This document shows, piece after piece, positions 8,481 to 56,420 of a stretch of 64,000 nt of DNA (positions are counted from its first letter, which is position 1; each line of letters begins with the position of its first letter). The position numbers and the translations under genes were made by a program. Below the pieces are notes generated by a model. The model was not told where the DNA came from and searched no databases. It worked only from the letters and a program-made list of their open reading frames with translations. The DNA is from an uncultured Chloroflexia bacterium (GTDB lineage: Bacteria > Chloroflexota > Chloroflexia > Chloroflexales > Herpetosiphonaceae). The DNA is taken from the NCBI GenBank assembly GCA_963767035.1, contig CAVYBW010000001.1, forward strand, positions 2,310,547 to 2,374,546. Direction: 5' to 3'.

Positions 8481-8493
8481 TTTATGTGAGTTT

Positions 8494-8598
8494 GCCCCCC
8501 TGCACCCCCTAAAGCTCAACAGGTGGCATACAGAAATCTTACGCTACCAAAACGCCCCTCGCCCGCGTGCAGTGGGCGAGGGGGCTGGGGGGTGAGGC
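8494..8598. repeat. GC-rich hairpin repeat family member (CCCCTCGCCCGCGTGCAGTGGGCGAGGGG + CTGGGGGGTGAGG)
   Basis: Perfect 10-bp stem hairpin read directly; same family recurs at nine or more sites. Confidence 0.7.
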
Positions 8599-8700
8599 AA
8601 CCAATCGTGTCATCCTATAGCTCAATCAATTTCGTGCCTCATGATATACTGTGAGCAGACTGACATTGCAAGCCCTCACACATAGGACATAAAAAACACA

Positions 8701-10503: not shown

Positions 10504-10516
10504 CGCATAAGTTGCT

Positions 10517-10718
10517 CTCACTCCAACCCCTCTCCCGTGCGCGGGCGAGGGGCTTTTTCGTTCTGTGGTTCATTCATAAATCGCGCTCTTTTGTTGGGCT
10601 GCTCCCCCTCGCCCGCAGTCAAGGGGAGCACGGCGTCTCGTGACCACGCATCATGCAAAAACACCAACTTAAGCCCCTCGCCCGCGTGCAGTGGGAGAGA
10701 TGGGTGTGGTAAGGGAAC
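10517..10718. repeat. Cluster of three GC-rich hairpin repeat units (same family)
   Basis: CTCACTCCAACCCCTCTCCCGTGCGCGGGCGAGGGGC; GCTCCCCCTCGCCCGCAGTCAAGGGGAGC; AGCCCCTCGCCCGCGTGCAGTGGGAGAG... Confidence 0.7.
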
Positions 10719-10737
10719 ATTAATAGCAACATGAGGT

Positions 10738-10775
10738 AAAACTCCACACTGATTAAAAAGTGTGGAGTTTTTTTG
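10738..10775 (+). terminator. Rho-independent terminator after lepA
   Basis: AAACTCCACACT-loop-AGTGTGGAGTTT followed by TTTTT. Confidence 0.7.
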
Positions 10776-10854
10776 TGCTTGTGATACTTCGGCATGTGGT
10801 TGGTATTAACTAACGAACGTTCATTGAGCTTCGAACCTAGCGCGAGGTAGCCTC

Positions 10855-12196: not shown

Positions 12197-12218
12197 ACCG
12201 AGCGTCAATAAAACTCAA

Positions 12219-12249
12219 GCCCAACCCAAATGTAAATTTTGGGTTGGGC
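12219..12249. terminator. Bidirectional terminator hairpin between convergent genes
   Basis: GCCCAACCCAAA-TGTAAA-TTTGGGTTGGGC perfect 12-bp stem. Confidence 0.55.
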
Positions 12250-12272
12250 CTATTCGGATCTAGAACAACAGT

Positions 12273-13049
12273 TTAGGTTGTAATTGTTGGTAGCTCACTG
12301 ATGATTAAATTGCGAATTTCTAGGGCTTGGGCTTGGTGGGCCAGCACACCGCCGCGCACAATGCCGCGCAGTGAAACTTGGGCATATTGGTTATCAAGCC
12401 AGAGAATCAAGCCTAATCTGGTTGTTGGCAAATTGTGCGTTTTGAGCACCAATTGCTGATCAAGCCAAAACTCCACCCGATCAACATACCAATCGATTTG
12501 ATAGTGTTGCCAACGATTCCAGCGCAGATTAATTGGCTGGCTGCGCACGCCCAAGGCCAGTTGCAGCAAGGGCAAACAACACCGCTCACGCAACCAGCTG
12601 TTTTGGCTCAGCAATAAGCCCAACGGAGCCAGCGGCAACAAGGCCAAACACAAGACCAAGCGCGGCACAAAGCTCATTGCCAGCCAACCATTGCTCGCGC
12701 CATTGGCAGTTAATTCGAGCTTGCTGGCCGCACTAGCATAGAAAAACCACAACGCTTGCGGCAAGGCCAAGCGCCGCAAGCCAGTGCCAGCAGGGTCATT
12801 CCACCAACCAAAGCCTGCCGTGCCCACAAAATGCTGAGGATCGCCACAAAATCGCGCCTCGAGTTGCAGCCGCACTGGCGCATGCCAACGTAAATCGGCA
12901 GCAACATAATCATCCAATTGCGCATCGCTATAAACTATGCGATCATGCTGATTAAGGGCGAGCCGCACGCCATCAACAATTGGCTGAATTTCGGCATGAT
13001 TGGGTGTCCACGCATGCCAACGCCGCCCCCAAAACGAGCGAAAAGTCAT
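12273..13049 (-). CDS. Hypothetical protein
   Basis: Long ORF; internal ATG at 13049 with AGGAG RBS preferred over the TTG at 13070. Confidence 0.5.
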   Translation of the reverse strand: MTFRSFWGRRWHAWTPNHAEIQPIVDGVRLALNQHDRIVYSDAQLDDYVAADLRWHAPVRLQLEARFCGDPQHFVGTAGFGWWNDPAGTGLRRLALPQALWFFYASAASKLELTANGASNGWLAMSFVPRLVLCLALLPLAPLGLLLSQNSWLRERCCLPLLQLALGVRSQPINLRWNRWQHYQIDWYVDRVEFWLDQQLVLKTHNLPTTRLGLILWLDNQYAQVSLRGIVRGGVLAHQAQALEIRNLIISELPTITT

Positions 13050-13061
13050 TAGGAGACTCCT

Positions 13062-13448
13062 ATGTCGCAAGCCTTGTTAATTTTTGATGGAACCTGCGAT
13101 TTTTGCACCCGCGCCGCCCGTTGGGTCAAACAGCTCGATCGTCAGCAACGGATTCGGATTGAGCCGTTTCAAAAGCCTGGCGTGCCCGAATCGGTTGGCT
13201 TAACCTATGCTCAATGCGAGCAAGCAGCGTGGCTGCAAACCAGCGAGGGAAAATTATGGCGCGGAGCTGGGTCGATTAATGCAGCGCTGAGCATTGCTAC
13301 GGGCAATGGTTTGCTTCTGAGTTTATATCAAATGTGGGGTATTCGCCAGCTTCAGGATGGCGTGTACAAACTGATTGTCAAACATCGCCATCGCATTCCA
13401 GGCGATACGCCGCATTGCCAACAATTCCCTGCCGATTGCCCGCGCTAA
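13062..13448 (+). CDS. DCC-family thiol-disulfide oxidoreductase (DUF393)
   Basis: N-terminal FDGTCDFC motif; AGGAG RBS 6 nt upstream. Confidence 0.75.
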   Translation: MSQALLIFDGTCDFCTRAARWVKQLDRQQRIRIEPFQKPGVPESVGLTYAQCEQAAWLQTSEGKLWRGAGSINAALSIATGNGLLLSLYQMWGIRQLQDGVYKLIVKHRHRIPGDTPHCQQFPADCPR

Positions 13449-13939
13449 GCTATGGCCAACTGTTCGAGCAGCCATTCGAAGGCCCGGGTAGCCGAAGCCT
13501 GTTTATTGCCCAAACGATCGTAGGGCCAAATATGCTGCTCGACCAAGCCTTGATTGGGCAAGTACAACCCTAAATAGACTAAGCCGACTGGTTTTTCGGC
13601 GCTGCCGCCACCTGGCCCAGCAATGCCAGTCGTGCTTATGCCAACCGTTGCCCCAAGCGCTTGCGCCGTGCCTTGGGCCATTGCTAAGGCGGTTTCAGCG
13701 CTCACCGCGCCGACGGTCGCTAGGGTTGAATTTGGCACATGCAAAAGCTGTTCTTTGGCGCTATTGGCATAGGCAATGATGCCACCCAAATACACCAGCG
13801 AACTTCCAGCAATATTGGTCAGCCAATCGCCCAACAAGCCGCCAGTACACGATTCGGCAGTGGCAAGCGTCCATTGGCGTTGTGCTAAAGCCGTAATTAC
13901 TGCTTGGGCTAAGGCTTGCGACATCGATTTATCCCTCAA
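13445..13939 (-). CDS. CinA C-terminal domain protein / nicotinamide-nucleotide amidohydrolase (PncC-like)
   Basis: TLATAESCTGGLL motif typical of the CinA C-terminal domain. Confidence 0.8.
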   Translation of the reverse strand: MRDKSMSQALAQAVITALAQRQWTLATAESCTGGLLGDWLTNIAGSSLVYLGGIIAYANSAKEQLLHVPNSTLATVGAVSAETALAMAQGTAQALGATVGISTTGIAGPGGGSAEKPVGLVYLGLYLPNQGLVEQHIWPYDRLGNKQASATRAFEWLLEQLAIA

Positions 13940-14085
13940 CGGCGTTTACTGAGCAAACCAAACGCCGATAAGCCCAAATAAATAACTGTGCCAATAATCA
14001 AGAGTTTAAAGCCTACTTTGAGCACTAGCCCAAGAACCCACAAGGCCACCAAGGCCAATACAATCCAACCAATTAAACGGGTCAT
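13936..14085 (-). CDS. Small membrane protein (about 49 aa, two TM segments)
   Basis: AAGGAG RBS; hydrophobic sequence; stop overlaps the upstream gene start. Confidence 0.4.
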   Translation of the reverse strand: MTRLIGWIVLALVALWVLGLVLKVGFKLLIIGTVIYLGLSAFGLLSKRR

Positions 14086-14167
14086 CATCGGCTCCTTACT
14101 AGCATAAACCAAGGTCTCAAGTGGCGGCGATTTCTGCTTTGGTAAATGAATGGAACGCCAACACCGT

Positions 14168-14446
14168 CTAGGATAAGCCAATATCCCAGGTTGCAGCAAT
14201 TTCTTCTTTGGTAAATGAACGGAAGGCTAAAACCGTCGAGGTGCGCACAATCCCCTTGAGGCTACCAATTTGGTCGGGCACAGTTTTGGCCAGTTGGTCA
14301 TAATCGGCCAAACGCACAATCGCGATAATATCCCATTCGCCAGTGACCGAATAGACCTCAGCCACACCTTCAATCGCAGTTAAGCCAGCCGCTACGCCAT
14401 TGGCGGCGCTTGGCTCAGTTTGAATATGCACAAATGCGGTGATCAT
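14168..14446 (-). CDS. Stand-alone Lrp/AsnC ligand-binding (RAM) domain protein
   Basis: 'VTGEWDIIAIVRLADYDQL...IVRTSTVL' matches the AsnC C-terminal domain; no HTH present. Confidence 0.65.
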   Translation of the reverse strand: MITAFVHIQTEPSAANGVAAGLTAIEGVAEVYSVTGEWDIIAIVRLADYDQLAKTVPDQIGSLKGIVRTSTVLAFRSFTKEEIAATWDIGLS

Positions 14447-14537
14447 CGCTGGTTCCTCGCCATAGCATCCAAAAATTCAGGCTTATTTTAACATATTCGC
14501 CAAGGTGCTGGCTTATGAGGGTTGATCGGTTAATAAT

Positions 14538-14746
14538 CCCTCACCACAACCCTGCTACCATGGTGCGAGCGAGGGGCTTTTTGTTGCGTAGTTTTGCCGT
14601 GATGCGTGAGACCAAGCGACATGTAACTCCCCCTGGCCGAGCAGGCGAGAGAGGGGTCTGGGGGTGAGGGAACGCTCAACCTTTGCCCATCCACCATACC
14701 ATCCTTGTGCGGCCTGCTCGGCGGGAGAGGGGCTGGGGGTCAGCGG
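14538..14746. repeat. Cluster of GC-rich hairpin repeat units (same family)
   Basis: CCTCACC...GCGAGGGGC and GGGGTCTGGGGGTGAGGGAAC units. Confidence 0.65.
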
Positions 14747-14939
14747 ACACTCCAATTTTCCTCATGATTCCTGCTTCGTACTTCATGCTTGATTATTTCG
14801 GGTGCGACTTTCAAAAAACGATAAAATATAGTAGGATTAGCACAACCGCGCAATGCGTCAAAAAGGGCGACTTTTTAAGCTTTTGACAGGCTGCCCACGC
14901 TCCTCTATCATGAGGATATTAATTTTTTAGCCATCGAGC

Positions 14940-15188
14940 ATGTGGTGTGGATGGGATATCATGGATTCGCAGCAACAGTTCGCCGCTGCCTCGCATTTGA
15001 CTGCTGATAATTTGCGTAGTATTGCGCATTCGATCTCAATCAGTCAGGTGTCGCGGTTGTCGTTGCCAGAGATCGATGCCGTTGTTGACCAAATCTCGCG
15101 GGTGGTGCCTGCTGGCAACGTGCCCGGGGTGATTTTAAGCGGTTTAGCCAAGTTTAACGGGCCGTCGGCCAGCAGGCAATGTAATTAA
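14940..15188 (+). CDS. Small hypothetical protein (74-82 aa) immediately upstream of the 721-aa gene
   Basis: ORF ends 8 nt before the next gene; no recognisable domain. Confidence 0.3.
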   Translation: MWCGWDIMDSQQQFAAASHLTADNLRSIAHSISISQVSRLSLPEIDAVVDQISRVVPAGNVPGVILSGLAKFNGPSASRQCN

Positions 15189-15195
15189 ACGTGAT

Positions 15196-17361
15196 GTGAA
15201 TCTCATGTTTCGCGGAGTTGAGCAAGCGCTTGATAAAGCGGTGTTTAGCACCTTCTTTGCTGGGCCAGCCGCAGTTATTTGGGGTTACCAAAAGCTGTTG
15301 GAGTTGGCAGGCAAAGATCCCCAAGATGCGTTTCCTGAAGGCACATGGCAATTTTATGTTGGCTATGCCTTGCGTGAGGATACTGCCCGCCACGCCAACG
15401 AAACTGTCGGCTTCGACGAAACACTGAACGATCATAAAATCAATTTGCCGCCGATCGACCGCATGACTGCTTGGGTCATGGCGGCAATTCATCTTCTCCA
15501 CAGTTACCCCGAATTGCTTGAAAATGAATGGCGCGAGCGGGTTTCGTTGGCCTTGCTGCGCGATCTGACCAAGGTTAATCCAGAAACCCGCCAATTTGCC
15601 GACCTCTACAGTCAATGGGAACGCCAACGCCCCTATGGCCGTGGCCCCGATGTGCAATCGCAGGAAACCTACGCTATCTATCGCAAACGTAAATTCGATG
15701 AATTTATGGCCGAATCAACCCGTGAATTGCCGAAAGAGCTGCGCGAACGCTGGGGCAAGCAGTTTCAACGCGCTCGTGAAATTGCGCTGCCAGCCTATCA
15801 ACGCCAAATGTCGTTGGCAGCATACCTCGATCCAACGCCCTATAACGAAAATATGGTGGCCTTGCCACGCCAAAGTTGGCATATTGGTTTAATCTGGCGC
15901 GGCCATTATTATTTGATTCCGGCCTGCGCCCCCAATAGCACGCGACCCAACGATGTGAGCAATGTGCGGAGCCAAATTGCCGCGTTGTTGGCAAGCCCCG
16001 CCAATCATGCCCCAACCTCGTTAATTCCCTTGGCAACCACCAAACGGGCAAGTTTGCCAAGCATTTTGGGCAAGCTGCGCCCCGAAACCAGCCAACAACT
16101 CGAAGCATTGCGTTGTGCCCCAATTTGGTTTAACGCCGATGGCCGACCACGCCATTTGCCTTTGGCCGAATTGCGCCTAACCGAACGGGCGCTTGGCGAC
16201 CACGGCTTAACCTTGATCGATACTGGCTCAAGTATGGTCTTTGATCAATCGCATATTTTCTTTGATGGTGCGTGGGGTTCAGCCGTCGCCGAAATTATGA
16301 CACTCGAAGCCTTGGCGTGGGCGGTCTATTTGCGTGGGCAACCGGCTCCAGTTGCGGGTACGGTGCGCCCATATGCCCCCAATATTGAGCTAAACGACGA
16401 GGAAAAACAAATCATCGCCGATAGCCCCAAGATTGTGGCCGAAGCCAGCGCCGAATCAATTGGGCTTGATCTGAAGAAGATTTTGGATTTACGCAAGTTG
16501 TTCAAGCAGCGTAACGACCAAATTCGGATCACGGTCAATGATATATTGGTGCTTTATCGCGCGATTCATGCGGTTTCCTACAAGCCCAATCCTGAGTTGC
16601 AAGTTTCGTTGCAAGAAGCCGCAAACGATGCCAATCTCAAAGCGGCGGTTGAAGCAACCATTACAGCCTTTGAAGAATCGCTCAGCAATCCCGCGATTTT
16701 AATTCCAGTTGATGGCAGCATTCCCAATCCCAGCGATCGCCTGCATCCCATGACTTTCGAGGTTCCACTGGAAGAACTTGAGATCAACAAATTGCATGAA
16801 CGGGCGTTGAGTTTACTTGATCAAGCTCGTCAAGAGTGGCGCGCCGAAGTTTGGGATACCTTTGAAGCCACCCAAAAGCATTATTTGGCCACGATTGCTG
16901 GCTTTGGCGAAGTTTCAGCTCGCGCCAAAGATATTGCCCAATCAGGTGAAAGCACTTCGTCTGGAGCTTTGCGCTTGTTGGCGCACGTACCGATGGCCTT
17001 ACAACGCTTGCTCGATGCGATTCCAGGCAAGTTCGACGTGCTCAACGATTTGATCAAAGGCCGCGAGGTGCTTTCAAATGTTGGCGCTGTCGCCGATACC
17101 AGCTCCCTGTCACGCTTTATCACCGCCAAAGACGATAACGAAAAGAAAACTTTGGCTTGGGGTGTGATTACCGATGCCAACGGCGTGATGCACGTTTCGC
17201 TGCGCGACTTCCGACCGCATGTTGGCTTGTTTGTGCAGGCTGGGCGGCGCGATTTGGCGCGGCGGATTGCCAATGATTACCTTGAAAGCTACGTCAATGG
17301 GCTTAATCGCTTTATCAGCGAACTGACCAAAATCACCCAAGGCCGCCATAGTCGCCAATGA
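15196..17361 (+). CDS. Large hypothetical protein (721 aa), no recognisable domain; GTG start at 15196 or ATG at 15205
   Basis: Long uninterrupted ORF with normal codon usage; directly upstream of the tandem kinase. Confidence 0.6.
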   Translation: MNLMFRGVEQALDKAVFSTFFAGPAAVIWGYQKLLELAGKDPQDAFPEGTWQFYVGYALREDTARHANETVGFDETLNDHKINLPPIDRMTAWVMAAIHLLHSYPELLENEWRERVSLALLRDLTKVNPETRQFADLYSQWERQRPYGRGPDVQSQETYAIYRKRKFDEFMAESTRELPKELRERWGKQFQRAREIALPAYQRQMSLAAYLDPTPYNENMVALPRQSWHIGLIWRGHYYLIPACAPNSTRPNDVSNVRSQIAALLASPANHAPTSLIPLATTKRASLPSILGKLRPETSQQLEALRCAPIWFNADGRPRHLPLAELRLTERALGDHGLTLIDTGSSMVFDQSHIFFDGAWGSAVAEIMTLEALAWAVYLRGQPAPVAGTVRPYAPNIELNDEEKQIIADSPKIVAEASAESIGLDLKKILDLRKLFKQRNDQIRITVNDILVLYRAIHAVSYKPNPELQVSLQEAANDANLKAAVEATITAFEESLSNPAILIPVDGSIPNPSDRLHPMTFEVPLEELEINKLHERALSLLDQARQEWRAEVWDTFEATQKHYLATIAGFGEVSARAKDIAQSGESTSSGALRLLAHVPMALQRLLDAIPGKFDVLNDLIKGREVLSNVGAVADTSSLSRFITAKDDNEKKTLAWGVITDANGVMHVSLRDFRPHVGLFVQAGRRDLARRIANDYLESYVNGLNRFISELTKITQGRHSRQ

Positions 17362-17462
17362 TGTGGCTACGAGCTGCGGGCTATTGGCTGAAATAATGAG
17401 CATCATTACAACACAATCAACGCTGGGTGTGACAATCAATGGCATAGTAGTAGGTTACCCTG

Positions 17463-17488
17463 TAGCCTATAGCCTATAGCCTATAGCC
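17463..17488. repeat. 7-bp tandem repeat (TAGCCTA) x about 3.7, ending 11 nt upstream of the kinase start codon
   Basis: Read directly: tagcctatagcctatagcctatagcc. Confidence 0.8.
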
Positions 17489-17499
17489 AAGATACTACT

Positions 17500-19722
17500 A
17501 TGACTGATGATCTGCTAGGAAAACAACTCGCCAATTTTCGCATCGACCGAGTTCTAGGCCGTGGTGGCATGGGCTTGATCTACGTCGGCCACGATATCAA
17601 ACTTGATCGGCCTGTGGCGATCAAGGTGATCGATGGGCGCTATCGTCAAGTGCCAAGCTATGCCGAGCGCTTTGTGCGCGAAGCCCGCGCCATCGCTACT
17701 TGGCGGCACGAGAATATCGTTCAGATCTACTACGCCGACGATACCAATAATCTCTATTATTTTGTAATGGAGTATATCGATGGCGTTGATCTTTCCAAAG
17801 TTTTAGCCCAATACACCAGCACTAGTAGCCTCTTGCCGCATAGCGCCGTGATCCATATTGCCCGTAGTTTGGCTAGTGCGCTCGATTATGCCCACAAAAA
17901 GGGCGTGATTCACCGCGACATCAAGCCATCAAATGTGATGGTGGCCCACGATCAGCGGGTGGTGTTGATGGATTTTGGCTTGGCGCTCGATACCCAGCTT
18001 GGCTCGCAGGGCGAAGTGTTTGGCACGGCCCACTACATCGCGCCTGAACAGGCTCGCCGCTCTGCCGATGCAATTCCGCAATCAGATTTATATGCTTTAG
18101 GCGTGATGTTGTATGAATTATTAACTGGCTCGGTGCCATTTGATGATCCATCGGCAACCAGCGTGGCTTTACAACATATCACCCAGCCACCGCCAGCGCC
18201 CCAAGAGAAAAACCCCAAACTCAATGATGCCACGGCAGCGGTGCTGGTCAAAGCGCTAGCCAAAGCGCCAGCTGATCGTTTTCAAACCGGTGCCGAGCTG
18301 ATGGCGGCTTTAGAACAAGCTTTGGAGGTTACAGGTAGTCATCAAATTGCGGCGAATGCCAATGTTGCGCCTGGTGTACGGCCACCATCACAGCCTGGAG
18401 CATTAGGCTTTGCCACCTTCGACCCCGAAAAACCCTTGGAAGGCCAATATCTCGATGGCTATCGGGTTGAATCGTTGCTCGGTCGCGGCGGGATGGCCAA
18501 CATCTTCCGTGGAGTCGATGTGCGGCTCAATCGCACGGTGGCGATCAAAGTTATCGATACGCCATTCCGCAACGATCAAAGCTATGCCGAACGTTTCAAC
18601 CGCGAAGCCCAAGCGATTGCCCAGCTCGAACATCCCAATATTGTGCGGCTCTATCACTATGGCGATTCCTATGGCCTGTTGTATATGGTGATGGAATATA
18701 TCGAAGGCCAAAATCTGCACAAAGTGATCGAGCAGGTACGCACCAGCGCCCAAGAATGGACACCGCGCACGCTGTGCCGCATGATTCGCGAAATCTGTGC
18801 AGCGTTGGATTATGCACATAGCAAGGGCGTAATCCATCGCGATGTCAAACCATCGAATATTATGATCAACAAAGATGGTCGGGCAATTTTGGCCGATTTT
18901 GGCTTGGCCTTGTTGACCGAGGTTGGCACCCGTGGTGAGATTTTTGGCTCGCCGCATTATGTGGCACCGGAGCAGGCAATCTCATCGGCCAAGGTTGTGC
19001 CTCAAACCGATCTCTACAGTTTGGGCGTGATTTTATATGAGCTTTGGACGGGTCAAGTGCCGTTTGACGATGCTGATCCGTTGGCAATTGCCATGTTGCA
19101 TATGGCCGAGCCACCCAAAGCGCCACGCTCGATCAATCCGGCTATTTCGGCCCAACTTGAGGCTGTGATTCTCAAAATGTTGGCCAAAGATCCTGCCGAA
19201 CGCTTTCCGACTGGGGTTGATTTGGCTGAAGCGTTGGAAGCAGCGCTGGGCATTTCATCGACTGGCACAGGCGAATATGTACGTAGCCAAATCACGCCAG
19301 TGCTTGATCAAGCAGTTAATGCGCCAAGTGCGCCAGCGATTTCAACTCCAACGCCAGTGGTTATCGCAACTGAGCCAACCTCACCTAAAACTGCCAGCCA
19401 GCCAATTTCCAACGTATTGCCAGCAGAGTCGTTACCAACCCCGCCAACACCTGCAAACAAATACGAGAAAGCGCCTTCTGAGCCAACCAAACGGCGGGTG
19501 CAGCCATTGCCGCCAACGCCAGCCGCCGTCGCCAAAGCTCCCGAGCCAACCAGCGCGCCGACGCTGCCCATGCCACCAGCCGATAACACTATTCGCGAAG
19601 CGCCAGCCCCGCGTTTGTATACCAATCGGCAACAACGCAGCAGCCTTTTGATGATGCTGCTTGGTGTGATTGCGCTGATCTTTTTTATCGTGCTGATCTG
19701 GCAACTAGCCAACATGATCTAA
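17500..19722 (+). CDS. Ser/Thr protein kinase with two complete tandem catalytic domains, a Pro-rich linker and a C-terminal TM anchor
   Basis: Both domains carry GRGGM glycine loop, VAIK, HRDxKPSN, DFG, APE. Confidence 0.85.
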   Translation: MTDDLLGKQLANFRIDRVLGRGGMGLIYVGHDIKLDRPVAIKVIDGRYRQVPSYAERFVREARAIATWRHENIVQIYYADDTNNLYYFVMEYIDGVDLSKVLAQYTSTSSLLPHSAVIHIARSLASALDYAHKKGVIHRDIKPSNVMVAHDQRVVLMDFGLALDTQLGSQGEVFGTAHYIAPEQARRSADAIPQSDLYALGVMLYELLTGSVPFDDPSATSVALQHITQPPPAPQEKNPKLNDATAAVLVKALAKAPADRFQTGAELMAALEQALEVTGSHQIAANANVAPGVRPPSQPGALGFATFDPEKPLEGQYLDGYRVESLLGRGGMANIFRGVDVRLNRTVAIKVIDTPFRNDQSYAERFNREAQAIAQLEHPNIVRLYHYGDSYGLLYMVMEYIEGQNLHKVIEQVRTSAQEWTPRTLCRMIREICAALDYAHSKGVIHRDVKPSNIMINKDGRAILADFGLALLTEVGTRGEIFGSPHYVAPEQAISSAKVVPQTDLYSLGVILYELWTGQVPFDDADPLAIAMLHMAEPPKAPRSINPAISAQLEAVILKMLAKDPAERFPTGVDLAEALEAALGISSTGTGEYVRSQITPVLDQAVNAPSAPAISTPTPVVIATEPTSPKTASQPISNVLPAESLPTPPTPANKYEKAPSEPTKRRVQPLPPTPAAVAKAPEPTSAPTLPMPPADNTIREAPAPRLYTNRQQRSSLLMMLLGVIALIFFIVLIWQLANMI

Positions 19723-19729
19723 TGTGTAT

Positions 19730-19937
19730 CCTCAACCTCCAACCCTCTCGCCTCACAAGGGTTGGTTTTTAACAATGGACTGGTGGATGGGCAACGTTTT
19801 TGCGTTCCCTCACCCCCTCACCCCCTCTCCCGCACACGAGGCGAGGGGGAACCGATTGCGACATCCCATGAAGCAACAAAACCACGGCGTTAAGCCCCTC
19901 TCTCGTGGCGCGGAAGAGGGGTTGGGGTGAGGGAACG
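19730..19937. repeat. Cluster of GC-rich hairpin repeat units (same family)
   Basis: CCCTCACCCCCTCACCCCCTCTCCCGCACACGAGGCGAGGGGG; AGCCCCTCTCTCGTGGCGCGGAAGAGGGGTTGGGGTGAGGGAAC. Confidence 0.65.
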
Positions 19938-20093
19938 CAAAACCCTGTTGCTCCCGCCCAAAATTGTGGAACGAATCAGGCTGTTAACTCCTAGCCTACA
20001 ATCCAAGTCCAATCGAGAACTGATGGACAGAATTCATTGCAGCCGTACAATTGCATTGATCGATTTTGATCCATCAATGTGGATGAGGTAGCT

Positions 20094-21011
20094 ATGCTTG
20101 AGCGTTATCGTGGCTGTTTGTTGGGGTTGGCTGTTGGCGATGCAGTTGGAACGACAGTGGAATTTAGCCCACCAGGTTCATTTAAACCACTGACCGATAT
20201 GGTTGGTGGTGGGCCATTTAATTTACCGCTAGGCGCGTGGACAGACGATACCTCGATGGCGTTATGCTTGGCAGCAAGTCTGATCGAGCGTCAAGGCTTC
20301 GATGCAGTTGATCAGATGCAGCGCTATTGTCGTTGGCGTGATTACGGTTATATGAGCAGCACTGGCTCGTGTTTTGATTGTGGCATTACGGTTGGCAAAG
20401 CACTAAGCACATTTCAAAGCACTGGCGATCCTTATAGTGGCTCGACCGATCCATCAACTGCGGGCAATGGCTCGTTGATGCGCTTGGCGCCGGTAGTTTT
20501 GGCCTATGCCAGCCAACCAGAGCAGGCCATGCAGCTGGCGGTTGATAGCTCGCGCACCACTCATGGCGCACTTGCGGCACTTGATGCCTGTCGTTATTTC
20601 GCTGGTTTGTTAATTGGCGCATTGAATGGAGTGGATAAGGCTGAATTGCTGGCTCCGCACTATAGCCCCATTGCTAATTATTGGCAGCAACAACCATTGC
20701 ACGCTGATATTGCTGAGATTGCCGCTGGCTCGTTTTGGCAGCGCCAACCGCCCGAAATTCAAGGTACTGGCTATGTGGTGCGCTCGCTTGAAGCGGCGTT
20801 ATGGGCTTTTGCTCATAGCGATTCATTCCGCGAAGGTTGTTTGCTAGCGGCGAATCTTGGCCACGATGCTGATACCACTGCGGCAATTTATGGCCAAATT
20901 GCCGGAGCCTACTACAGCGAGGCTGGAATTCCCGAAGCATGGCGCAACCCGATTGTTAGCCACGATCTGATTGTTGAATTTGCCGAACGGCTTTATCGCT
21001 TCAGCCATTAA
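20094..21011 (+). CDS. ADP-ribosylglycohydrolase family protein (DraG-like)
   Basis: N-terminal GxLLGxAVGDAxG and WTDDTSMALC motifs; C-terminal GHDADTTAAIYGQIAGAYY. Confidence 0.8.
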   Translation: MLERYRGCLLGLAVGDAVGTTVEFSPPGSFKPLTDMVGGGPFNLPLGAWTDDTSMALCLAASLIERQGFDAVDQMQRYCRWRDYGYMSSTGSCFDCGITVGKALSTFQSTGDPYSGSTDPSTAGNGSLMRLAPVVLAYASQPEQAMQLAVDSSRTTHGALAALDACRYFAGLLIGALNGVDKAELLAPHYSPIANYWQQQPLHADIAEIAAGSFWQRQPPEIQGTGYVVRSLEAALWAFAHSDSFREGCLLAANLGHDADTTAAIYGQIAGAYYSEAGIPEAWRNPIVSHDLIVEFAERLYRFSH

Positions 21012-21034
21012 ATCTGGGAGTAGGATAGTACACC

Positions 21035-21172
21035 GTTCCCTCACCCCAACCCCGCTCTCGTGGCGCGGGCGAGGGGCTTAATCTTGTGGTTGTTCGTTGA
21101 TGCATGGGCACTCAACGGATGCTCCTCCTCGCCCGCGTGCAGTGGGCGAGGAGGTCAGGGGGTGAGGAAATC
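21035..21172. repeat. Two GC-rich hairpin repeat units (same family)
   Basis: GCTCCTCCTCGCCCGCGTGCAGTGGGCGAGGAGGTCAGGGGGTGAGG. Confidence 0.65.
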
Positions 21173-23142
21173 TTAGGGCAGCAAGCGTAGGCGTTGAATT
21201 GTGACAGGCTGTTGCTCAGCGCCCGCCACGACCGGATCAAGCCGCAGCATGCCAATTGGGCCTTGCCAAGTTGGAATTTGGCTCAGATCAAGCGTATAGG
21301 TATGCAGCTTGCCATCGCCAATTACATCCCAAATAACCGAACGATCTTCGGTTGCGCCTTGACCTGGTGCCATCCAATAGAGTTGGCCGTGTTGGTTGGG
21401 CAAGCTTGTGGCCATAGTAATTTCAAGTTTGCGCCATTGGTTGCTCTCCAGCGTGATGCGTGGGCTGAGCAAATGTGGGTCTTGCTCAGGCAGAAATTGC
21501 CAGCCATCAGCCCATGTGCTCTCAGCAATAAAATTTCCGCGCCAGCCCAAACTCCAATGCTGCCAATGCCAATCGGGCAAGCCTTGGGGAATCGGATCAA
21601 GCTTAAAGTAGTTGGCATGAGTCAGGCTGATTGGCTGGGCTTGTTGCAGAAATGGGGCAAAACAGTCAGCCACCGCTTGTTGCTCAAGCCCATAGCGTTC
21701 GAGCAAAATTGGGCTAGGCTTGACTGCCTGCTGATCGAGCCACACTGTGTAGCCAGCGCTGGTGGTATCAACAATTTTGGCGCTAATTTCCATGCAGCCA
21801 TGCTGCCAATCGCCAGGGCTGACGCTGAGTGGCAAACTATTTGGCCGTTCAAACTCATATTCGGCATATAAGGCTTGCAAGCCATTTGGCACCAGATAAA
21901 AATCATTGCTGGTGCCAGCCTGCGCCAATTCAGTTATCTGGGTACGATCTTGATCGTTGGCACGATCGCCATTACGCCTGATTTGCCAGCCATTGCTCAA
22001 AGCCATGCCCAGCAGCACCAAACTAAGGGCGGGCTGCAACCAACGCCAATCTGGCAGATTAATGCTATTCAGCGCCAAGCTAACGAGCAAGGCCCATGGC
22101 GGCAAGCAGGCGATCCAAAACTCAATATTATCTGGCTCCCACCAGCCAAAAAAAAGGCTGTAGCTTACAAGCCATGTTATGGCCAGCAACACCAACGGTC
22201 GTGATTGCTGCCAAATTCGTCGCCAGCGCCATACAATCAGGCCGAGGCTTGCCAGTAATAGCACTCCGCCCAACCAGCAATGAATCGTATGCTGCCAACC
22301 ACTGAGCAGATTGCCAATAGTCGAGGCACTTGGCGTAGCGCCCCACAAACCAGTATTGGCATATTCAAATAGCCATTGTTGAATTTGGCCCAGCTGCGAA
22401 AACCACTCAAGCCAAAGATCACAATGGCATAGCTGCCGCCAACCACTAGCAAACCAACGCTGGCATAATGCAACAATCCGCGCCAGCGTTGGCTCCATGG
22501 CGTGGCCGCCCAATCGGCGCTCAGCCACACCGCCAGTACCGGCACAAGCCACAGCACATTGGTTTGATGAAACAAAATTGCACCACTATGGGCTAAGCCA
22601 AGCCAACGCCAAGTGGCCAAACTCTGCGGCGTTTCGGCTAAGCGCATCAACAGGCCAGTGGCAATAATTAAAAACAAGCCAGCCAAGGTATAGACCTCGA
22701 CCTCAACTGCGTAATACCACCAAGCGTAAGCACCGCCCAGCAACAAACTGCCGATCGTTGCTAGCCAAGCGTGCTTGGTCAAGCGGCGAAGCAAGTTCCA
22801 CCAGATGATCACGCCGCTTGCGCCAGCCAGCACATTAAGCAATTGTAACGGCCCAAACGCCATGCCCTGATAGCCCAAAGCTTGGCTGAATCCATACACA
22901 ATCTCGCCAAGCGGCCCATACAACAAATGATGGGGGTGAAACGATTCGCGCCAAGGTTTGGCTTGCACCGCCGTCGCATACGAGTAGGCATCGAAGGTAT
23001 GAATTTGGGTCAGCGTCAGGCTATAGAGTACAACCAAGCCCAGCCACGCCAAACCAAGCTTTAAACGAAATTGTTGCTGCATTGCGGTTTCCAAAAAGCG
23101 CGCTAAAACAAAGACACAGCCTGTTGTTACAGACTGTGCCAT
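21173..23142 (-). pseudogene. GT-C-like polytopic membrane glycosyltransferase-like protein split into two overlapping frames (22237..23142 and 21173..22552); probable frameshift near 22380
   Basis: Both ORFs encode a continuous many-TM protein plus C-terminal soluble domain; the ORFs overlap by 316 nt in different frames. Confidence 0.4.
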
Positions 23143-25525: not shown

Positions 25526-26527
25526 TTGAAATGGACGACCATGGAAGATTTTTTACGCCGCGCAGCGGCTGATTTACATATTGGGGTTGAACAAACTACC
25601 CCGACCACCTGGACATTGACCATCCCCGGCAGTTTGGCGCGGGTTTTTGGCAAAGAAACAGTTTTGGTAACCACCGATAAGCAGGTTGCGGCACTTGATC
25701 CTGACCTTCAATTGCTTTCGCCCAACTCATCGTTGACCTTGCGCTTAGCCGAACAATTGCGCTCACGCGGGCGGCCAACCCATCGCGCCCGCTTGGAATG
25801 GTATCCCGATCAAGCGGCGTTGCTGTCCGATGTGCAGGAAGCTCAATTAATTCAGGGGACAGCGCTGCAAATTAGCGCCTTGCAACAACACATCGTGCTG
25901 CGCATTACTTTCCGCATTCGCTTCGAGCGCGAAGTGATCGAGGAGAAAATGGTAGCCTGCTGTGTTGATTATGAAACTGGCCATGTTTGGCCAACCATCA
26001 CCGATATTACCAATTTGCGCGAACAACTCATGCCCTTGCCCTCAACTGGCCTGACCGAGGAACATGTGAATGTCTCGTTGCATCACGCTCGCCGCTGGCT
26101 CGAACGCTTACTTTACCCCCAAAAAGCGCTGCACGAGGCCCAACTTGCCCAATTGTTAGCCGTTGAAAAAGCACGGATTAATGCCTTCTACGATGCCTTA
26201 GAGGAAGATTCGGGCCTTGCCTTGGGAGCCAAAGAAGGCGAATCGAACAAACAATATGCGCTTGAAGAAGAACGCAAACGCTTGCTCGATGAACAAGAGT
26301 ATCGCTATGCCTTGTCGTTGGCCGCCGAAACCGTCAGTGTTGCGACGCTGCAAGTGCCAGTATTGCACATTGGTAGCAAACAACAACCGCAATTAATCGC
26401 CATTTCGCCATTGTTTGAGCCAATGATTCAGTTGCCACATTGCCAAACCTGTGGTCGCCAAGCAAGTTTGGTTCAACATCAAGCGCAGCTTGTCTGCAAT
26501 GTTTGCCATCAGGTGCTCGCCCAATAA
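25526..26527 (+). CDS. Hypothetical protein with a C-terminal zinc-ribbon-like CxxC...CxxC; TTG start at 25526 or ATG at 25541
   Basis: ORF divergent from the protease gene; CQTCGRQ...CNVCHQ motif. Confidence 0.5.
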   Translation: MKWTTMEDFLRRAAADLHIGVEQTTPTTWTLTIPGSLARVFGKETVLVTTDKQVAALDPDLQLLSPNSSLTLRLAEQLRSRGRPTHRARLEWYPDQAALLSDVQEAQLIQGTALQISALQQHIVLRITFRIRFEREVIEEKMVACCVDYETGHVWPTITDITNLREQLMPLPSTGLTEEHVNVSLHHARRWLERLLYPQKALHEAQLAQLLAVEKARINAFYDALEEDSGLALGAKEGESNKQYALEEERKRLLDEQEYRYALSLAAETVSVATLQVPVLHIGSKQQPQLIAISPLFEPMIQLPHCQTCGRQASLVQHQAQLVCNVCHQVLAQ

Positions 26528-26555
26528 GCTTTTTGCGAGCCAATTTTTGAGTTGA

Positions 26556-26926
26556 TCCCCTCACCCCCCAACCCCCTCTCCCACTGCACGCGGGCGAGGG
26601 GGAGCCACACAACACTACTGAGATTTCGCGGCGAGCGTTCCCTCACCCCAACCCCTTCGCGCCCTGCACGCGGGCGAGTGGGAGTCCATATCCATTGTTG
26701 CCACGCATCATGACAAACCACGCCGTTAACGCCCCTCGCCCGCCGCTGTGGGAGAGGGGTCGAGGTGAGGGTATCTTCATTACCTACTCTTGCAAGCCAG
26801 CCTCTCTGCACGCGGGCGAGGGGGAGCTATGATCCAAAAATACTGATGCTCCGTCCAATCTCGATACACCACCGTGTTAACGCCCCTCGCCCGCCACGTG
26901 GGCGAGGGGTTGGGGGTGAGGGGATC
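26556..26926. repeat. Largest cluster (five or more units) of the GC-rich hairpin repeat family; includes two copies of a roughly 55-bp composite unit
   Basis: Units at about 26556, 26636, 26729, 26800, 26880; composite unit CGTTAACGCCCCTCGCCCGCC... appears twice. Confidence 0.7.
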
Positions 26927-27127
26927 ATTCAACTCCTCAATTCATCTATTAATAAAGGTTAATAAAGGATAGTCTTAAGCAGCTTGCAAGGGCTTGTAAA
27001 CACCCCTATGATACTAACCACGCATAGATCTTTTAGCTACTGACATTCCACCCTTTCTATGCACATCGGTCTTAGCAGCCAATAGGCTTGGCCCAGCCCT
27101 GATCGTTGGAGAATTGAAAGGGGAAGT

Positions 27128-39575: not shown

Positions 39576-39937
39576 AAAGGATGAAGGATAAAGAATATTC
39601 CCTCACTCACCCCAACCCCGCTCCCGTGGCGCGGGCGAAGGGCTTTACCACGTGAATATCGCAATGGGTGGTGGAAACCCATGCTCCCCCTCGCCCATCG
39701 CTGTGGGAGAGAAGGTCGGGGGGTGCTTACAAGAGTAGATAGTTAAGATCCCCTCACCCCAACCCCTCGCCCACGTGGCGGGCGAGGGGCTTAACTCGGT
39801 GGTTTTGCTGTGCTGTGTATAATCCACGACGGCTCCCCCCTCGCCTCGCGTGCGGGAGCGGGGGTTGGGGGTGAGGGAATACCCAGTACCATTTTAAAAA
39901 CCTACCCTTGTAAAATGGCTCTCATCCTTCATCCTTT
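39576..39937. repeat. Repeat cluster (four GC-rich hairpin units at 39597..39880) bounded by a perfect 14-bp inverted repeat
   Basis: AAAGGATGAAGGAT at 39576 and ATCCTTCATCCTTT at 39924; the right arm encodes the last codons of the GT gene. Confidence 0.55.
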
Positions 39938-43857: not shown

Positions 43858-43910
43858 TCACTCGCTAAGCATCCCTCGTCCGCACTCGAGGTGAGGGGCT
43901 TAGCGAGTGA
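43858..43910. terminator. Compound hairpin between convergent genes, related to the GC-rich repeat family
   Basis: CACTCGCTAAGC...GCTTAGCGAGTG outer stem. Confidence 0.45.
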
Positions 43911-56246: not shown

Positions 56247-56420
56247 TCTCCTCACCCCAACCCCTCTCCCGTCCAACAGGCGAGGGGCTTAATCTCATGC
56301 TATTGAGACGATTTATTGAACCAAAAGATCAGTTCTCCCATCGCCCGAGATCACGAATCAACCACAAATCCCGACTCCCCTCGCCCGCGTTCAGTGGGCG
56401 AGGGGTTGGGGGTGAGGGAA
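56247..56420. repeat. Two GC-rich hairpin repeat units (same family)
   Basis: CTCCCCTCGCCCGCGTTCAGTGGGCGAGGGGTTGGGGGTGAGGGAAT. Confidence 0.65.

Follow-up and report, generated by a model that had tools for sequence, protein, structure and literature searches.

GC-rich palindromic repeats that go by the names BoxC, PIT (potential intrastrand triplex) and TMECO occur in E. coli, other Proteobacteria and many more bacteria; their history in E. coli spans about 30 years, to our knowledge without an accepted origin, spreading mechanism or function. We took the TMECO pattern and the E. coli copies from Holder et al. 2015 (PMC4666352), through whose citations we also refer to the earlier descriptions of BoxC and PIT elements; the main text of that paper does not mention Chloroflexota, and it gives the repeats as absent from Salmonella. 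The same E. coli sequences reappear as G-quadruplex motifs, GGGAGAGGG-TTA/CCG-GGGTGAGGG, in the work of Kaplan et al. 2016 (PMC5100583) on the HPG1/HPG2 G-quadruplex-hairpin-duplex switch.

Here we describe repeats in a stretch of 64,000 nucleotides from an uncultured bacterium of the Herpetosiphonaceae (hereafter, the window). With a probability that we put at roughly 0.6, they form a Herpetosiphon subfamily, amplified in this lineage, of the GC-rich three-arm palindromic DNA repeats called BoxC / PIT / TMECO and act at the DNA level. New here are the amplification of this core to very high density in a Chloroflexota genus, its organization into a larger conserved A+B doublet, its quick turnover between congeners, and the observation that direct copies of its composite bracket the indel of a 6.4-kb gene block.

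A BoxC-type core in Herpetosiphon and other phyla

The likeness to the E. coli repeats begins with three 10-mers in the same order (CCCCTCACCC-TAA-CCCTCTCCCC-AAA-GGGGCGAGGGG in E. coli, CCCCTCACCCC-AA-CCCCTCTCCC-loop-GGGCGAGGGG in the window) and extends to the same conserved mismatch, of the "A mm" type. Both sets are strictly intergenic and free of strand bias, both are tied to local rearrangement without a linked transposase, and both comprise two subtypes, each of which forms inverted doublets only with the other, the E. coli copies obeying this A-with-B rule according to Holder et al. (PMC4666352). The differences concern loop 1 (7-9 nt in the window versus 3-6), loop 2 (1-5 nt versus 3), a conserved tail of ∼30 nt added to subtype A in the window, and the orientation of the doublets, which face outward, with their CCCTCACC ends outside, in Herpetosiphon (16:0) and other Chloroflexota (5:0) but inward in E. 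coli and Planctomycetota. Density differs as well, at ∼1 unit per 3 kb in the window compared with 23 per 4.6 Mb in MG1655.

The covariance model that the preliminary description had called for, R1, was built from window units only. It found 21 full units in the window and also genuine E. coli copies, matching MG1655 at 3046052-3046091 in the ygfF-gcvP spacer (E = 1.8e-6) and the partner copy there (3.5e-5). A single unit used as blastn query matched nothing in E. coli genomes, probably owing to its shortness and low complexity. Under a three-arm rule with relaxed loops (CCCTCNCCC ... GGGNGAGGG ... GGGNGAGGG, that is, C-arm, G-arm 1 and G-arm 2), we obtained 5 exact matches where 0 were expected, and an alignment of all 21 units displays the three blocks; the strict TMECO pattern (loop 1 of 3-6 nt, loop 2 of 3 nt) has 0 matches in the window. 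The likeness to HPG1/HPG2 is one of sequence, and the strict G3+ four-tract pattern is present in only 9 of the 21 window units. An exact 24-base pattern occurs at more than 113 loci in at least nine phyla. E. coli shares the core with Chloroflexota, Planctomycetota, Cyanobacteria and no fewer than five other phyla.

Units, remnants and A+B doublets in the window

Within the window, CCCCTCGCCC occurs 43 times with at most one mismatch, against 3.6 ± 2.2 in shuffled sequence, and 0 of 100 shuffles reach 43. With core matches and three-arm matches both far above shuffles, a chance origin was rejected; a CRISPR-like array was rejected on account of the irregular spacing and alternating orientation, and the window holds no tRNA or tmRNA. 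The 21 full units, 10 on the plus and 11 on the minus strand, and ∼7 remnants are spread over nine intergenic sites. These are the sites at which the preliminary description had listed a hairpin family (8494, 10517, 14538, 19730, 21035, 26556, 32722, 39597 and 56247); the family is real and all nine stand. Every one of the 21 units is intergenic, none lying inside a gene, and together they occupy 9 of the ∼28 window intergenic regions of at least 60 nt.

A unit measures ∼43 nt and is made of three related 10-mers, CCCTCACCCC / CCCCTC(T/G)CCC / loop / GGGCGAGGGG. The flank CCTCACCCC(A)ACC / GGTTGGGGGTGAGG, which had been described as surrounding the hairpin, is indeed present and belongs to the unit itself. 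Subtype A has its ∼30-nt tail and subtype B a GAGC tail, the tails overall reading mostly CTTAAC or GAGC, and the GTGGCGC-type loops noted earlier as variants proved typical of subtype A. Identity to the family reference copy is typically 60-80%, and there are no identical or near-identical full copies in the window, hence no sign of recent transposition.

The first site, between an HpcH-type aldolase gene and lepA, carries a solitary subtype A unit with tail CGT at 8552..8598 (−; covariance model, 53.5 bits), with a degenerate remnant upstream of it at ∼8494-8520 that was recognized by sequence. A second A unit, at 10514..10555 (+; 42.4 bits), starts 11 nt past the lepA stop, its hairpin being followed by CTTTTT; beyond it lie a truncated B-like remnant (GCTCCCCCTCGCCCGCAGTCAAGGGGAGC) at 10604..10632 (−; sequence and nhmmer) and another A unit at 10671..10715 (−; 43.2 bits), whose tail runs to ∼10645 (nhmmer match 10645-10717). 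The composite at 14537..14669 (+), consisting of A (14537-14579, +) and B (14627-14669, −) with a remnant beside it at 14711-14741 (−), forms the left boundary of the 6.4-kb block. The right boundary is the composite at 21037..21166 (+), consisting of A (21037-21079, +) and B (21122-21166, −), which gives DNA fold z scores of −4.3 and −4.8 and has a compensatory CTCC/GGAG variant in its B stem. Between the two lies a B (19809-19851, +) plus A (19892-19934, −) composite at 19809..19934 (+; covariance model), near which a degenerate remnant was seen at 19730-19775.

At the focal site, a solitary B unit at 26560..26604 (+; 56.5 bits) is followed by a composite of B (26640-26684, +) and A (26729-26772, −) at 26640..26772 (+; covariance model and DNA fold) and by a truncated B (26797-26827, +) with A (26880-26922, −) at 26797..26922 (+). 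The last of these is the second copy of a longer composite whose duplication had been claimed, rightly, as 26707-26775 and 26858-26926, two stretches of 69 nt lying 151 nt apart, are 72% identical. A cluster at 32728..32955 (+) combines B (32728-32772, +), a B remnant (32793-32814, +), A (32853-32895, −) and another B remnant (32919-32955, +). Farther on come two composites, at 39603..39725 (+; A 39603-39645, +; B 39684-39725, −; covariance model) and at 39750..39876 (+; A 39750-39792, +; B 39834-39876, −); the latter contains the top-scoring unit of the window (60.5 bits, covariance model) and folds into a single long hairpin whichever strand is taken (DNA fold z = −6.0 and −5.2). A degenerate solitary hairpin akin to the unit core (CCCTCGTCCGCACTCGAGGTGAGGGGCTTA) at 43873..43902 (+), below the covariance-model threshold, marks a tenth location. 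The final composite, between a HAD-hydrolase gene and panD, has a longer spacer and spans 56248..56418 (+; A 56248-56290, +; B 56374-56418, −).

Units occur almost always in A+B inverted pairs of 123-171 nt, mostly ∼125-135 nt. Across Herpetosiphon sequences, 23 of the 24 outward pairs scored were A/B hetero-pairs, and in the lone pair typed AA the left unit is B-like by eye. When 22 composites (109-171 nt, again mostly ∼125-135 nt) were aligned across six Herpetosiphon genomes, the consensus was conserved, spacer included, and composites fold into long hairpins on one strand as readily as on the other (z = −2.6 to −6.0).

Pairing, transcription and DNA structure

The preliminary description had read CTCTCCC opposite GGGCGAG as a G-U wobble. 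This was mistaken: at the odd position T faces C on one strand, and on the other G faces A, so that neither strand has a wobble there. The mismatch is present in 14 of the 21 window units, and the same position is unpaired in 99 of 124 distinct cross-phylum copies. The companion claim, that structure is conserved despite sequence drift, fails for the 10-bp basal stem, which is kept as sequence and is invariant across phyla; two-sided changes occur in 2 cells only, and shuffles do as well (141/500). The constraint on the basal stem is one of sequence, not of pairing. Compensatory substitutions are thus not significant in the basal stem, whereas covariation across phyla is seen in the apical part of the hairpin, showing that a hairpin matters without telling DNA from RNA.

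The extreme sequence conservation of the three 10-mers in at least nine phyla, mismatch included, fits sequence-specific recognition better than generic pairing, and one might conclude that the repeats are protein-binding sites that structure the chromosome, with the invariant 10-mers as putative recognition sites and the copies kept for nucleoid organization. REP/BIME elements bind gyrase, IHF or Pol I, and the regularity of the doublets, in which the A/B rule holds, would also suit such a role. However, we know of no candidate binding protein for these repeats, nor did one emerge from our analysis. The copies also decay freely, down to the identities given above, and their patchiness among relatives (0 units in sampled H. 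geysericola and in two Herpetosiphonaceae MAG loci, and absence from Salmonella per PMC4666352) argues against an essential structural role, so that we hold this reading to be quite improbable.

An RNA-level function, as terminator or mRNA stabilizer, had been suggested; the hairpins or the long doublet hairpin, transcribed in 3′ UTRs, would terminate transcription, block 3′ exonucleases or make RNase III sites and in this way tune the upstream gene. A gene 3′ end does adjoin eight of the nine sites, as the claimed position between gene ends implies, but with a base rate of ∼71% among intergenic regions of at least 60 nt the preference is not significant. The repeats at 10514 and 32728 lie between a stop codon and the real terminator and are therefore probably transcribed, CTTTTT follows two A units (10514 and 14537), and the covarying pairs of the apical stem would fit a transcript as well. 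In addition, A+B composites tend to be ordered B-then-A relative to local transcription, in ∼11 of 14 co-directional contexts (∼11:3, p ∼0.06, hand tally). Given this trend, transcription may matter for composites, if only as a filter in selection; the trend is not what one would predict for a neutral element acting purely in DNA.

Several observations nevertheless speak against action in RNA. The basal stem lacks significant compensatory change, its conserved state carries a mismatch on either strand, and the check for strand bias found units equally frequent on both strands. A terminator scan of 8400-21300 returned only one unit (21055-21075) as borderline terminator-like, and we rejected an identity as intrinsic terminators since the consensus scan does not call the units and most of their tails read CTTAAC or GAGC. 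Real terminators lie beyond the repeats: the intrinsic terminator of lepA at 10738..10771 (+), with a 13-bp stem and T-run (terminator scan), is outside the repeat family and downstream of it, and a hairpin with T-run follows the 32728..32955 cluster at ∼32978-33013. The lepA terminator hairpin is conserved in H. giganteus and H. geysericola, where no repeats are found downstream of lepA and the hairpin comes directly after the stop; sister species with empty or differently filled sites have LepA proteins that are 96-98% identical. Rfam yielded 0 matches in the whole window at gathering thresholds, and permissive E-values in 26500-26960 brought up sub-threshold look-alikes only (sX8, and Antizyme_FSE at 25.7 bits against a threshold of 40), which we rejected as resemblances of a GC hairpin. 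The E. coli relatives show neither promoter nor terminator activity, according to Maher laboratory work as reported by Holder et al. 2015 (PMC4666352). In view of the conserved mismatch, strand parity, empty sister sites and separate terminators, the proposed RNA-level function finds no support as the main explanation and seems unlikely to us.

Yet another reading is that non-B DNA is adaptively maintained, with triplex or G-quadruplex formation providing useful local variation, as Holder et al. (PMC4666352) speculate, or switching nearby promoters, as in the switch of Kaplan et al. (PMC5100583). With loop 1 allowed up to 9 nt, the triplex rule is satisfied with at most 2 mismatched triads by 15 of the 21 units, compared with 0-2 in shuffles, and every canonical G-quadruplex motif of the window lies inside a unit (9/9, versus 1.4 expected). 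Indels are associated with the repeats here and in E. coli (PMC4666352), and both triplex (PMC4666352) and G-quadruplex (PMC5100583) form in vitro on oligonucleotides. The geometry is less accommodating, in that a loop 1 of 7-9 nt falls outside the 1-6 nt of the motif definition, as the missing strict TMECO matches reflect, and in roughly half of the copies in the window Watson-Crick pairing is restored (GGGCGAGGGG) with the loss of a canonical triad. The triplex went undetected in double-stranded DNA or in vivo in the work of Holder et al. (PMC4666352), a result that also weighs against the DNA-level explanation. Instability is more plausibly a side effect of repeated palindromes than something selected for, and we regard adaptive maintenance of such structures as very improbable.

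Turnover between species and possible means of spread

Three orthologous intergenic regions compared among five Herpetosiphon species present empty, single, double or rearranged states that fit no single tree. The region orthologous to that of the 8552..8598 unit is empty in H. geysericola and H. gulosus, and the entire focal cluster (26560-26922) is missing from the orthologous H. llansteffanensis intergenic region. Over 21.8 kb of H. geysericola no unit was found, while the same region in three other Herpetosiphon species has 3-6.

An example of rearrangement is given by the block at 14603..21036, which is bracketed by direct composite copies, as seen from blastn, junction alignment and empty sites, and is absent from four other Herpetosiphon species (blastn). 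It contains a 721-aa ORF, a Ser/Thr kinase gene and an ADP-ribosylglycohydrolase gene (Pfam). At the H. giganteus junction there is a single composite, with an A half like the left copy and a B half like the right copy.

The repeats behave like unstable REP-like repeated DNA that promotes indels and not like conserved regulatory RNA. As a statement about behavior, the "REP-like element" of the preliminary description is supported: these are short imperfect palindromes, highly repeated, strictly intergenic and grouped into inverted doublets and arrays, and close species differ by their gain, loss or rearrangement. Much of the presence/absence pattern could stem from differential deletion of old copies; we infer that mobility contributed and that loss did not act alone.

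The explanation we prefer, action at the DNA level, would run as follows. Repeat DNA that is single-stranded or supercoiled would extrude hairpins, or one long hairpin or cruciform, and the G-rich strand would have triplex and G-quadruplex potential. The A + B tail-to-tail inverted doublet would be the amplifying unit, like a REPIN or MITE, and would have spread to ∼1 in 3 intergenic regions by a putative dedicated trans-acting mechanism that leaves no target duplication. Copies would then decay or multiply locally to form arrays, and deletion as well as homologous or illegitimate recombination would act on them, giving rise to presence/absence differences and repeat-bracketed gene-block indels. 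Effects on transcripts would be secondary, copies in 3′ untranslated regions being tolerated or orientation-filtered.

The check for a transposase association of the REPtron kind covered the window, ∼190 kb from further Herpetosiphon(aceae) loci and the ORF clusters of 113 cross-phylum loci, none of which yielded a Y1 (RAYT) transposase. All-against-all clustering of ORFs of at least 120 aa from the 113 loci brought up large paralogous families only, namely ABC ATPases, acyl-CoA dehydrogenases, kinases and RND pumps, and no insertion sequence that shares the ends and could be a parent. At two loci, the genes bracketed by composites are housekeeping genes (SpoU methylase, TauE, GAF histidine kinase, aconitase). 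We saw no target-site duplication at any boundary or in filled-versus-empty comparisons, where the age of the copies limits the power and the flanks are not alignable to the base. The lack of a transposase, recombinase or recurrent neighbor at the 113 loci, like that of a target-site duplication, a definable precise empty/filled junction or any sign of recent transposition in the window, counts against the DNA-level explanation. Carriage by mobile vectors was considered and set aside: 50,697 phage records gave no match, and Azospirillum and Cupriavidus megaplasmids or chromids gave matches of core length only; 20 pattern matches were located in IMG/VR contigs.

Comparison with known mobile repeats reveals parallels. 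Like REPs, BIMEs and REPINs, the units are short imperfect GC-rich palindromes, highly repeated and strictly intergenic; they form inverted doublets and arrays of two alternating subtypes, as do the Y and Z REPs in BIMEs, and they are without target duplication, patchy among relatives and present in decaying copies. The repeated unit of a REPIN is an inverted doublet with spacer, and so is that of the window family (22 composites). HUH enzymes (IS200/IS605, REP-RAYT) read imperfect single-stranded-DNA hairpins, and the imperfection of the window stem recalls them. REPs differ in being lineage-specific in sequence, whereas the window core is near-identical across phyla, and in their tag, a GTAG or CGTC tetranucleotide at the end of the palindrome (PMC3733652); no such tag is seen in the window unit, whose ends are (G)ATCC|CCTCACCCC, reading (G)ATCC|CCTCACC, and GGGGTGAGGG|GATC. 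With MITEs (ERIC, Correia/NEMIS and cyanobacterial elements) the composites share a length of ∼130 bp, long terminal inverted repeats, folding into one long hairpin and an intergenic, non-coding nature. They differ from MITEs in having no target-site duplication or parent insertion sequence, and in that the "terminal repeats" are themselves internally palindromic three-arm units.

A tentative conjecture, rather unlikely as it stands, is that the three-arm core, the mismatch and A-with-B pairing together make up the cis-recognition module of a putative widespread trans-acting enzyme that copies doublets. The conjecture is prompted by the sharing of the core between E. coli and the other phyla named above. 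As candidates one may think of a domesticated single-strand-DNA nuclease or a recombinase, which would be to these repeats what RAYTs are to REPs but unrelated to the GTAG-tagged system. If this were true, Herpetosiphon would be the best place to find it by phyletic co-occurrence, because the repeats reach ∼1 copy per 3 kb and a congener, H. geysericola, may lack the family. Presence/absence among species, the consensus sequences of the doublets and the possible orientation bias provide handles for finding the propagating agent.

In these genomes the repeats further account for spurious ORFs, for G-quadruplex predictions and for likely trouble with assembly or annotation. That they would generate spurious ORFs had been anticipated, and it is well illustrated by a 100-aa ORF at 26509..26811 (−) that runs through the units of the focal site.

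Copies and anatomy of the repeat

The hairpin repeat family seen earlier in this DNA proved to be real: allowing for up to one mismatch, the core decamer CCCCTCGCCC occurs 43 times in the window versus 3.6 ± 2.2 times in dinucleotide-preserving shuffles, and the nine sites, recovered by reading, with a repeat finder and with an nhmmer profile, carry one and the same element. The repeat finder also marked a degenerate tenth hairpin at 43873-43902. From an alignment of 21 full copies (A1), we derived a covariance model (R1), which, with all filters off, returned exactly these 21 full units in the window, 10 on the plus and 11 on the minus strand; its extra matches were partial copies and the opposite-strand palindromic echo of each hairpin. 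The units are without exception intergenic, occupying 9 of the ~28 intergenic regions of at least 60 nt. The window itself has a G+C content of ~51% and contains no tRNA and no match to Rfam.

Read on the C-rich strand, the 21 aligned units follow the scheme (G)ATC-CCCTCACCCC(C)-AA-CCCCTC(T/G)CCC-loop of 7-9 nt-GGGCGAGGGG and therefore consist of three related 10-mers, the last two of which form a 10-bp hairpin. Subtype A combines an AA spacer with a GTGGCGC- or ACGTGGC-like loop and carries a conserved ~30-nt tail (CTTTAAC..GTGGTTCT..CGCAATGCGT..); subtype B is marked by extra C residues and an AA, AG or GA spacer, its loop being ACTG(A/C)ACGC and its tail GAGC. The two combine, tail to tail, into inverted doublets whose length ranges from 123 to 171 nt (mostly ~125-135 nt) and whose CCCTCACC ends lie outermost. 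Among the outward pairs scored in the window and at other Herpetosiphon loci, 23 of 24 were A+B hetero-pairs, and the left unit of the lone pair typed as AA is B-like by eye. The doublet is conserved genus-wide as a whole, spacer included, such that window doublets share 75-83% identity with doublets at unrelated loci in other species. It folds either into a single long hairpin or into two local ones that the outer arms close, equally well on either strand (z = -2.6 to -6.0).

In the focal stretch at 26556-26926, the order is B, then B+A, then truncated-B+A, and the repeat finder identified the longer composite reported within it as an A unit plus its tail. Comparing the flanks upstream of A units in H. 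sp. NSE202 and H. llansteffanensis (loci L018, L052, L098, L013 and L060), we found sequence outside the A-unit end to be conserved as well (CATCAGGTTAACCA..GG...GATCC, then CCTCACC), so some subfamilies may reach ~25 nt past the core.

Relation to E. coli BoxC and occurrence across phyla

Searching the full-text literature for the decamers led to two papers (PMC4666352 and PMC5100583). The first describes the TMECO (BoxC / PIT) "intrastrand triplex motif" of E. coli, 5'-CCCTCNCCC-N3-6-GGGNGAGGG-N3-GGGNGAGGG, of which MG1655 has 23 copies, for example CCCTCGCCCC-TTT-GGGGAGAGGG-TTA-GGGTGAGGGG (Holder et al. 2015, PMC4666352); the second treats these E. coli sequences as G-quadruplex motifs, named HPG1 and HPG2 (Kaplan et al. 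2016, PMC5100583). Reverse-complementing the TMECO motif and lengthening its loops gives the window unit. While the strict TMECO pattern has 0 matches in the window, the three-arm pattern with relaxed loops has five exact matches versus none expected. Under an ITxF-like triad rule with a loop 1 of at most 9 nt, seven units show at most one mismatched triad and 15 at most two, versus 0-2 in shuffles, and all nine canonical four-G-tract motifs of the window lie within units (1.4 expected). In addition, R1, built solely from window copies, finds both copies in the ygfF-gcvP spacer of MG1655 (E = 1.8e-6 and 3.5e-5).

TMECO copies are always intergenic, lack strand bias and transposase linkage, form inverted doublets in which type A occurs only with type B, and are missing from close relatives such as Salmonella; their loci show more between-strain rearrangement than controls, and the triplex went undetected in duplex DNA or in vivo (Holder et al., PMC4666352). 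Earlier work cited by the same authors found no promoter or terminator activity (PMC4666352). Every testable TMECO property recurs in the Herpetosiphon repeats, which represent a known but unexplained kind, the BoxC class; what is new is an architectural variant in a new phylum. Our literature search found no publication on Herpetosiphon repeats, and neither Chloroflexota nor Planctomycetota are mentioned in the main text of PMC4666352 or PMC5100583.

For a view of the wider distribution, we scanned GTDB contigs, one genome per species, with a pattern of 24 exact bases, CCTCACCCC-N0-2-AACCCC-N10-22-GGCGAGGGG. The matches listed comprise more than 113 loci, with a chance expectation estimated at well below ten. 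Among them are several Herpetosiphon species; other Chloroflexota (Thermomicrobiales, Dehalococcoidia, Anaerolineae, Ktedonobacterales, Chloroflexus and Roseiflexaceae); Planctomycetota, with at least ~27 loci; Cyanobacteria; Alpha-, Beta- and Gammaproteobacteria; and Bacteroidota, Ignavibacteria, Acidobacteriota, Actinomycetota and one Patescibacteria MAG. Since isolates and complete genomes are included, the signal is not a binning artefact. Proteobacterial megaplasmids gave core-length matches only, and cultured phage genomes gave no match to the repeat. R1 detected 139 units in 99 non-Herpetosiphon loci, with doublets being frequent. Doublets point outward in Herpetosiphon (16:0) and other Chloroflexota (5:0), mostly inward in Planctomycetota (8:2, with spacers of ~25 nt), and inward at the one E. 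coli locus examined; doublet architecture is lineage-specific.

Several individual matches stand out. In a Planctomycetota MAG (L030), a minus-strand unit at 2932-2972 lies in frame inside an ABC-transporter ATPase ORF (L030_-_4671_6023) and reads ...LTPNPSPLRGEGS... there, which is reminiscent of the in-frame Rickettsia palindromic elements, with an ORF-calling or assembly artefact being possible. Rumen Bacteroidaceae/Prevotellaceae MAGs (L012, L055, L097 and L107), unexpected hosts for a GC-rich element, carry their own variant, CCTCACCCCCTAACCCCCTCTCC-AAA-GGGCGAGGGGGAAGCCTACGGCGG.GAGGGGAG, and L055 has GAAGCCTACGGCGGCGAGGGG in tandem repeats. Lastly, 20 putative viral or prophage contigs from IMG/VR (L119-L138) match the 24-base pattern exactly, in either phage DNA or host flank.

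The unit's hairpin is imperfect in a conserved manner. Of all stem cells in the window units, 84.8% are paired, and at one odd position T faces C on one strand, with G facing A on the complementary one, in 14/21 window units and most full units from other Herpetosiphon loci. The G-U wobble proposed for CTCTCCC and GGGCGAG is in fact this mismatch, whichever strand is read. The proposal that structure is conserved despite sequence drift was not confirmed, as both-sided stem changes are confined to two cells and shuffled partners do as well in 141/500 shuffles; other than in these wobble and covariation claims, the preliminary description is correct. In 126 distinct copies from other phyla, the other nine basal pairs are near-invariant and thus uninformative for or against pairing, and the odd position is unpaired in 99, U-A in 17 and G-C in 8. 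The 5' arm in the pattern-selected set (n=106) is TCTCCC or CTCTCC in 89 cases and TCGCCC in 6. Covariation across phyla is seen in the apical stem extension, a region left free by the search pattern (for example, CCC-AT/AG/GT/TT-TGCG-AT/CT/AC/AA-GGG and CCCCGG-AGTA-CCGGGG). We conclude that a hairpin matters and that what is preserved in the basal arms is their sequence, one imperfection included; a plain RNA stem would leave a different signature.

Turnover and a repeat-bracketed indel in Herpetosiphon

The window derives from a Herpetosiphon species, its LepA being 96-98% identical to that of H. giganteus, H. sp. NSE202, H. geysericola, H. llansteffanensis and H. gulosus. Comparing the lepA regions of H. 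giganteus, H. geysericola, H. llansteffanensis and H. gulosus (L114-L117) with the window, we found the same gene order but differing repeats. The aldolase-lepA spacer contains one unit and a remnant in the window, two doublets in H. giganteus, one doublet in H. llansteffanensis, and no repeats in H. geysericola (86 nt) and H. gulosus (80 nt). On the 3' side of lepA, repeats lie between stop codon and terminator in the window and H. llansteffanensis; in H. giganteus and H. geysericola, the stop leads directly into the conserved terminator; and H. gulosus has two doublets after the stop codon, followed by another downstream gene and terminator. The focal spacer, from a 333-aa gene to mpaB, holds ~370 nt of repeats in the window, none in H. 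llansteffanensis (251 nt), and a different arrangement in both H. giganteus and H. gulosus; the H. geysericola locus does not extend to it. The patterns at these three intergenic regions fit no single tree and so require repeated gain, loss and rearrangement. With filters off, 0 units were found in 21.8 kb of H. geysericola, compared with 3-6 in the orthologous region of its three congeners, and 0 in 21.8 kb of each of two loci from more distant Herpetosiphonaceae MAGs (L139 and L140). The family is patchy within genus and family, as is BoxC between E. coli and Salmonella.

The genes following lepA also differ (window 10855-12196), with the variable segment beginning at the second repeat site: a sigma-70 family factor and a 274-aa ORF in the window and H. 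llansteffanensis, a VanZ-like gene on the opposite strand in H. giganteus and H. geysericola, and a 593-aa gene in H. gulosus. In H. geysericola alone, an IS605-type OrfB/TnpB gene, called in two pieces (L115 15955-17122; HTH_OrfB_IS605, OrfB_IS605 and Cas12f1-like_TNB domains), sits between CinA and AsnC-like genes and adjoins no repeat.

One segment of the window, 14603-21036, is missing from all four species; its 6.4 kb contain a 721-aa ORF with no match in Pfam and genes for a Ser/Thr kinase and an ADP-ribosylglycohydrolase. The block is bracketed on both sides by a copy of the doublet in the same orientation (14537-14669 and 21037-21166). Precisely at the empty junction, H. giganteus keeps one doublet (L114 14824-14967), and this doublet is a hybrid: its left flank is that of the window with an A half like the left copy, and its right flank is that of the window with a B half resembling the right copy. 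Neither the block nor a doublet at the junction occurs in the remaining three species. This pattern is expected of recombination at or between repeats, whether a block integrated at a resident copy or was deleted between two, and matches the instability of E. coli TMECO loci (PMC4666352).

Near the left copy, two small minus-strand ORFs meet within a 69-nt tandem direct repeat (14099-14236, 80% identity); one of these ORFs encodes a 92-aa Lrp/AsnC ligand-binding-domain protein (14168-14446). Beyond the right copy, overlapping minus-strand ORFs of 459 aa and 301 aa without a Pfam hit (21173-23142) correspond to one ~636-aa gene in the other species, which may reflect a frameshift, a pseudogene or a sequencing error in the window genome.

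Gene context, orientation and the nature of the element

Eight of the nine sites indeed lie between co-directional (six) or convergent (two) genes, as initially described, with one between divergent genes; this placement does not depart from the base rate. A role as terminator, one of the functions initially suggested, is not borne out, the units not being terminator-like and real terminators lying beyond the repeats. Nor was a REPtron-like association seen: ORFs near repeat loci included no transposase or other recurrent neighbor. Comparisons of filled and empty sites showed no target duplications, and the GTAG/CGTC tag that defines RAYT-linked REPs is missing from the window repeats.

Of the suggested readings, the REP-like one fared best, given intergenic palindromes, inverted doublets and turnover between species; the best-supported view is that the repeats are REP/REPIN-like non-autonomous repeated DNA of the BoxC class. 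Such a family would have been amplified in part of the Herpetosiphon genus, presumably through active mobility with the doublet as the replicating unit and a dedicated factor acting in trans. At the DNA level, the element would act as a palindrome prone to structure, potentially forming a hairpin, cruciform, triplex or G-quadruplex, and copies would decay in place while promoting indels and recombination. By analogy alone, the near-invariant cross-phylum core, the conserved mismatch and the pairing of A with B might point to a folded single strand that is recognized sequence-specifically, as in HUH-type systems. The family would be of high interest only if it led to the factor that propagates the element.

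One result does point toward transcription: read in the direction of the surrounding co-directional genes, the asymmetric doublet has B before A in 10/12 automatically scored cases, and a hand-curated tally over the window, L008, L009, L018, L052, L093, L114 and L116 gave ~11 independent sites versus 3 (p ~0.06). This bias might be a filter against doublets oriented so that the sense strand carries the A hairpin plus CTTT(T), or it could be a sign of an RNA-level role, the data being too few to choose between them. Within the window, the order of the doublet on the plus strand flips with local gene direction, so the bias follows neither DNA strand nor, if uniform, replication direction; a mostly falling cumulative GC skew suggests that replication direction is indeed uniform here.
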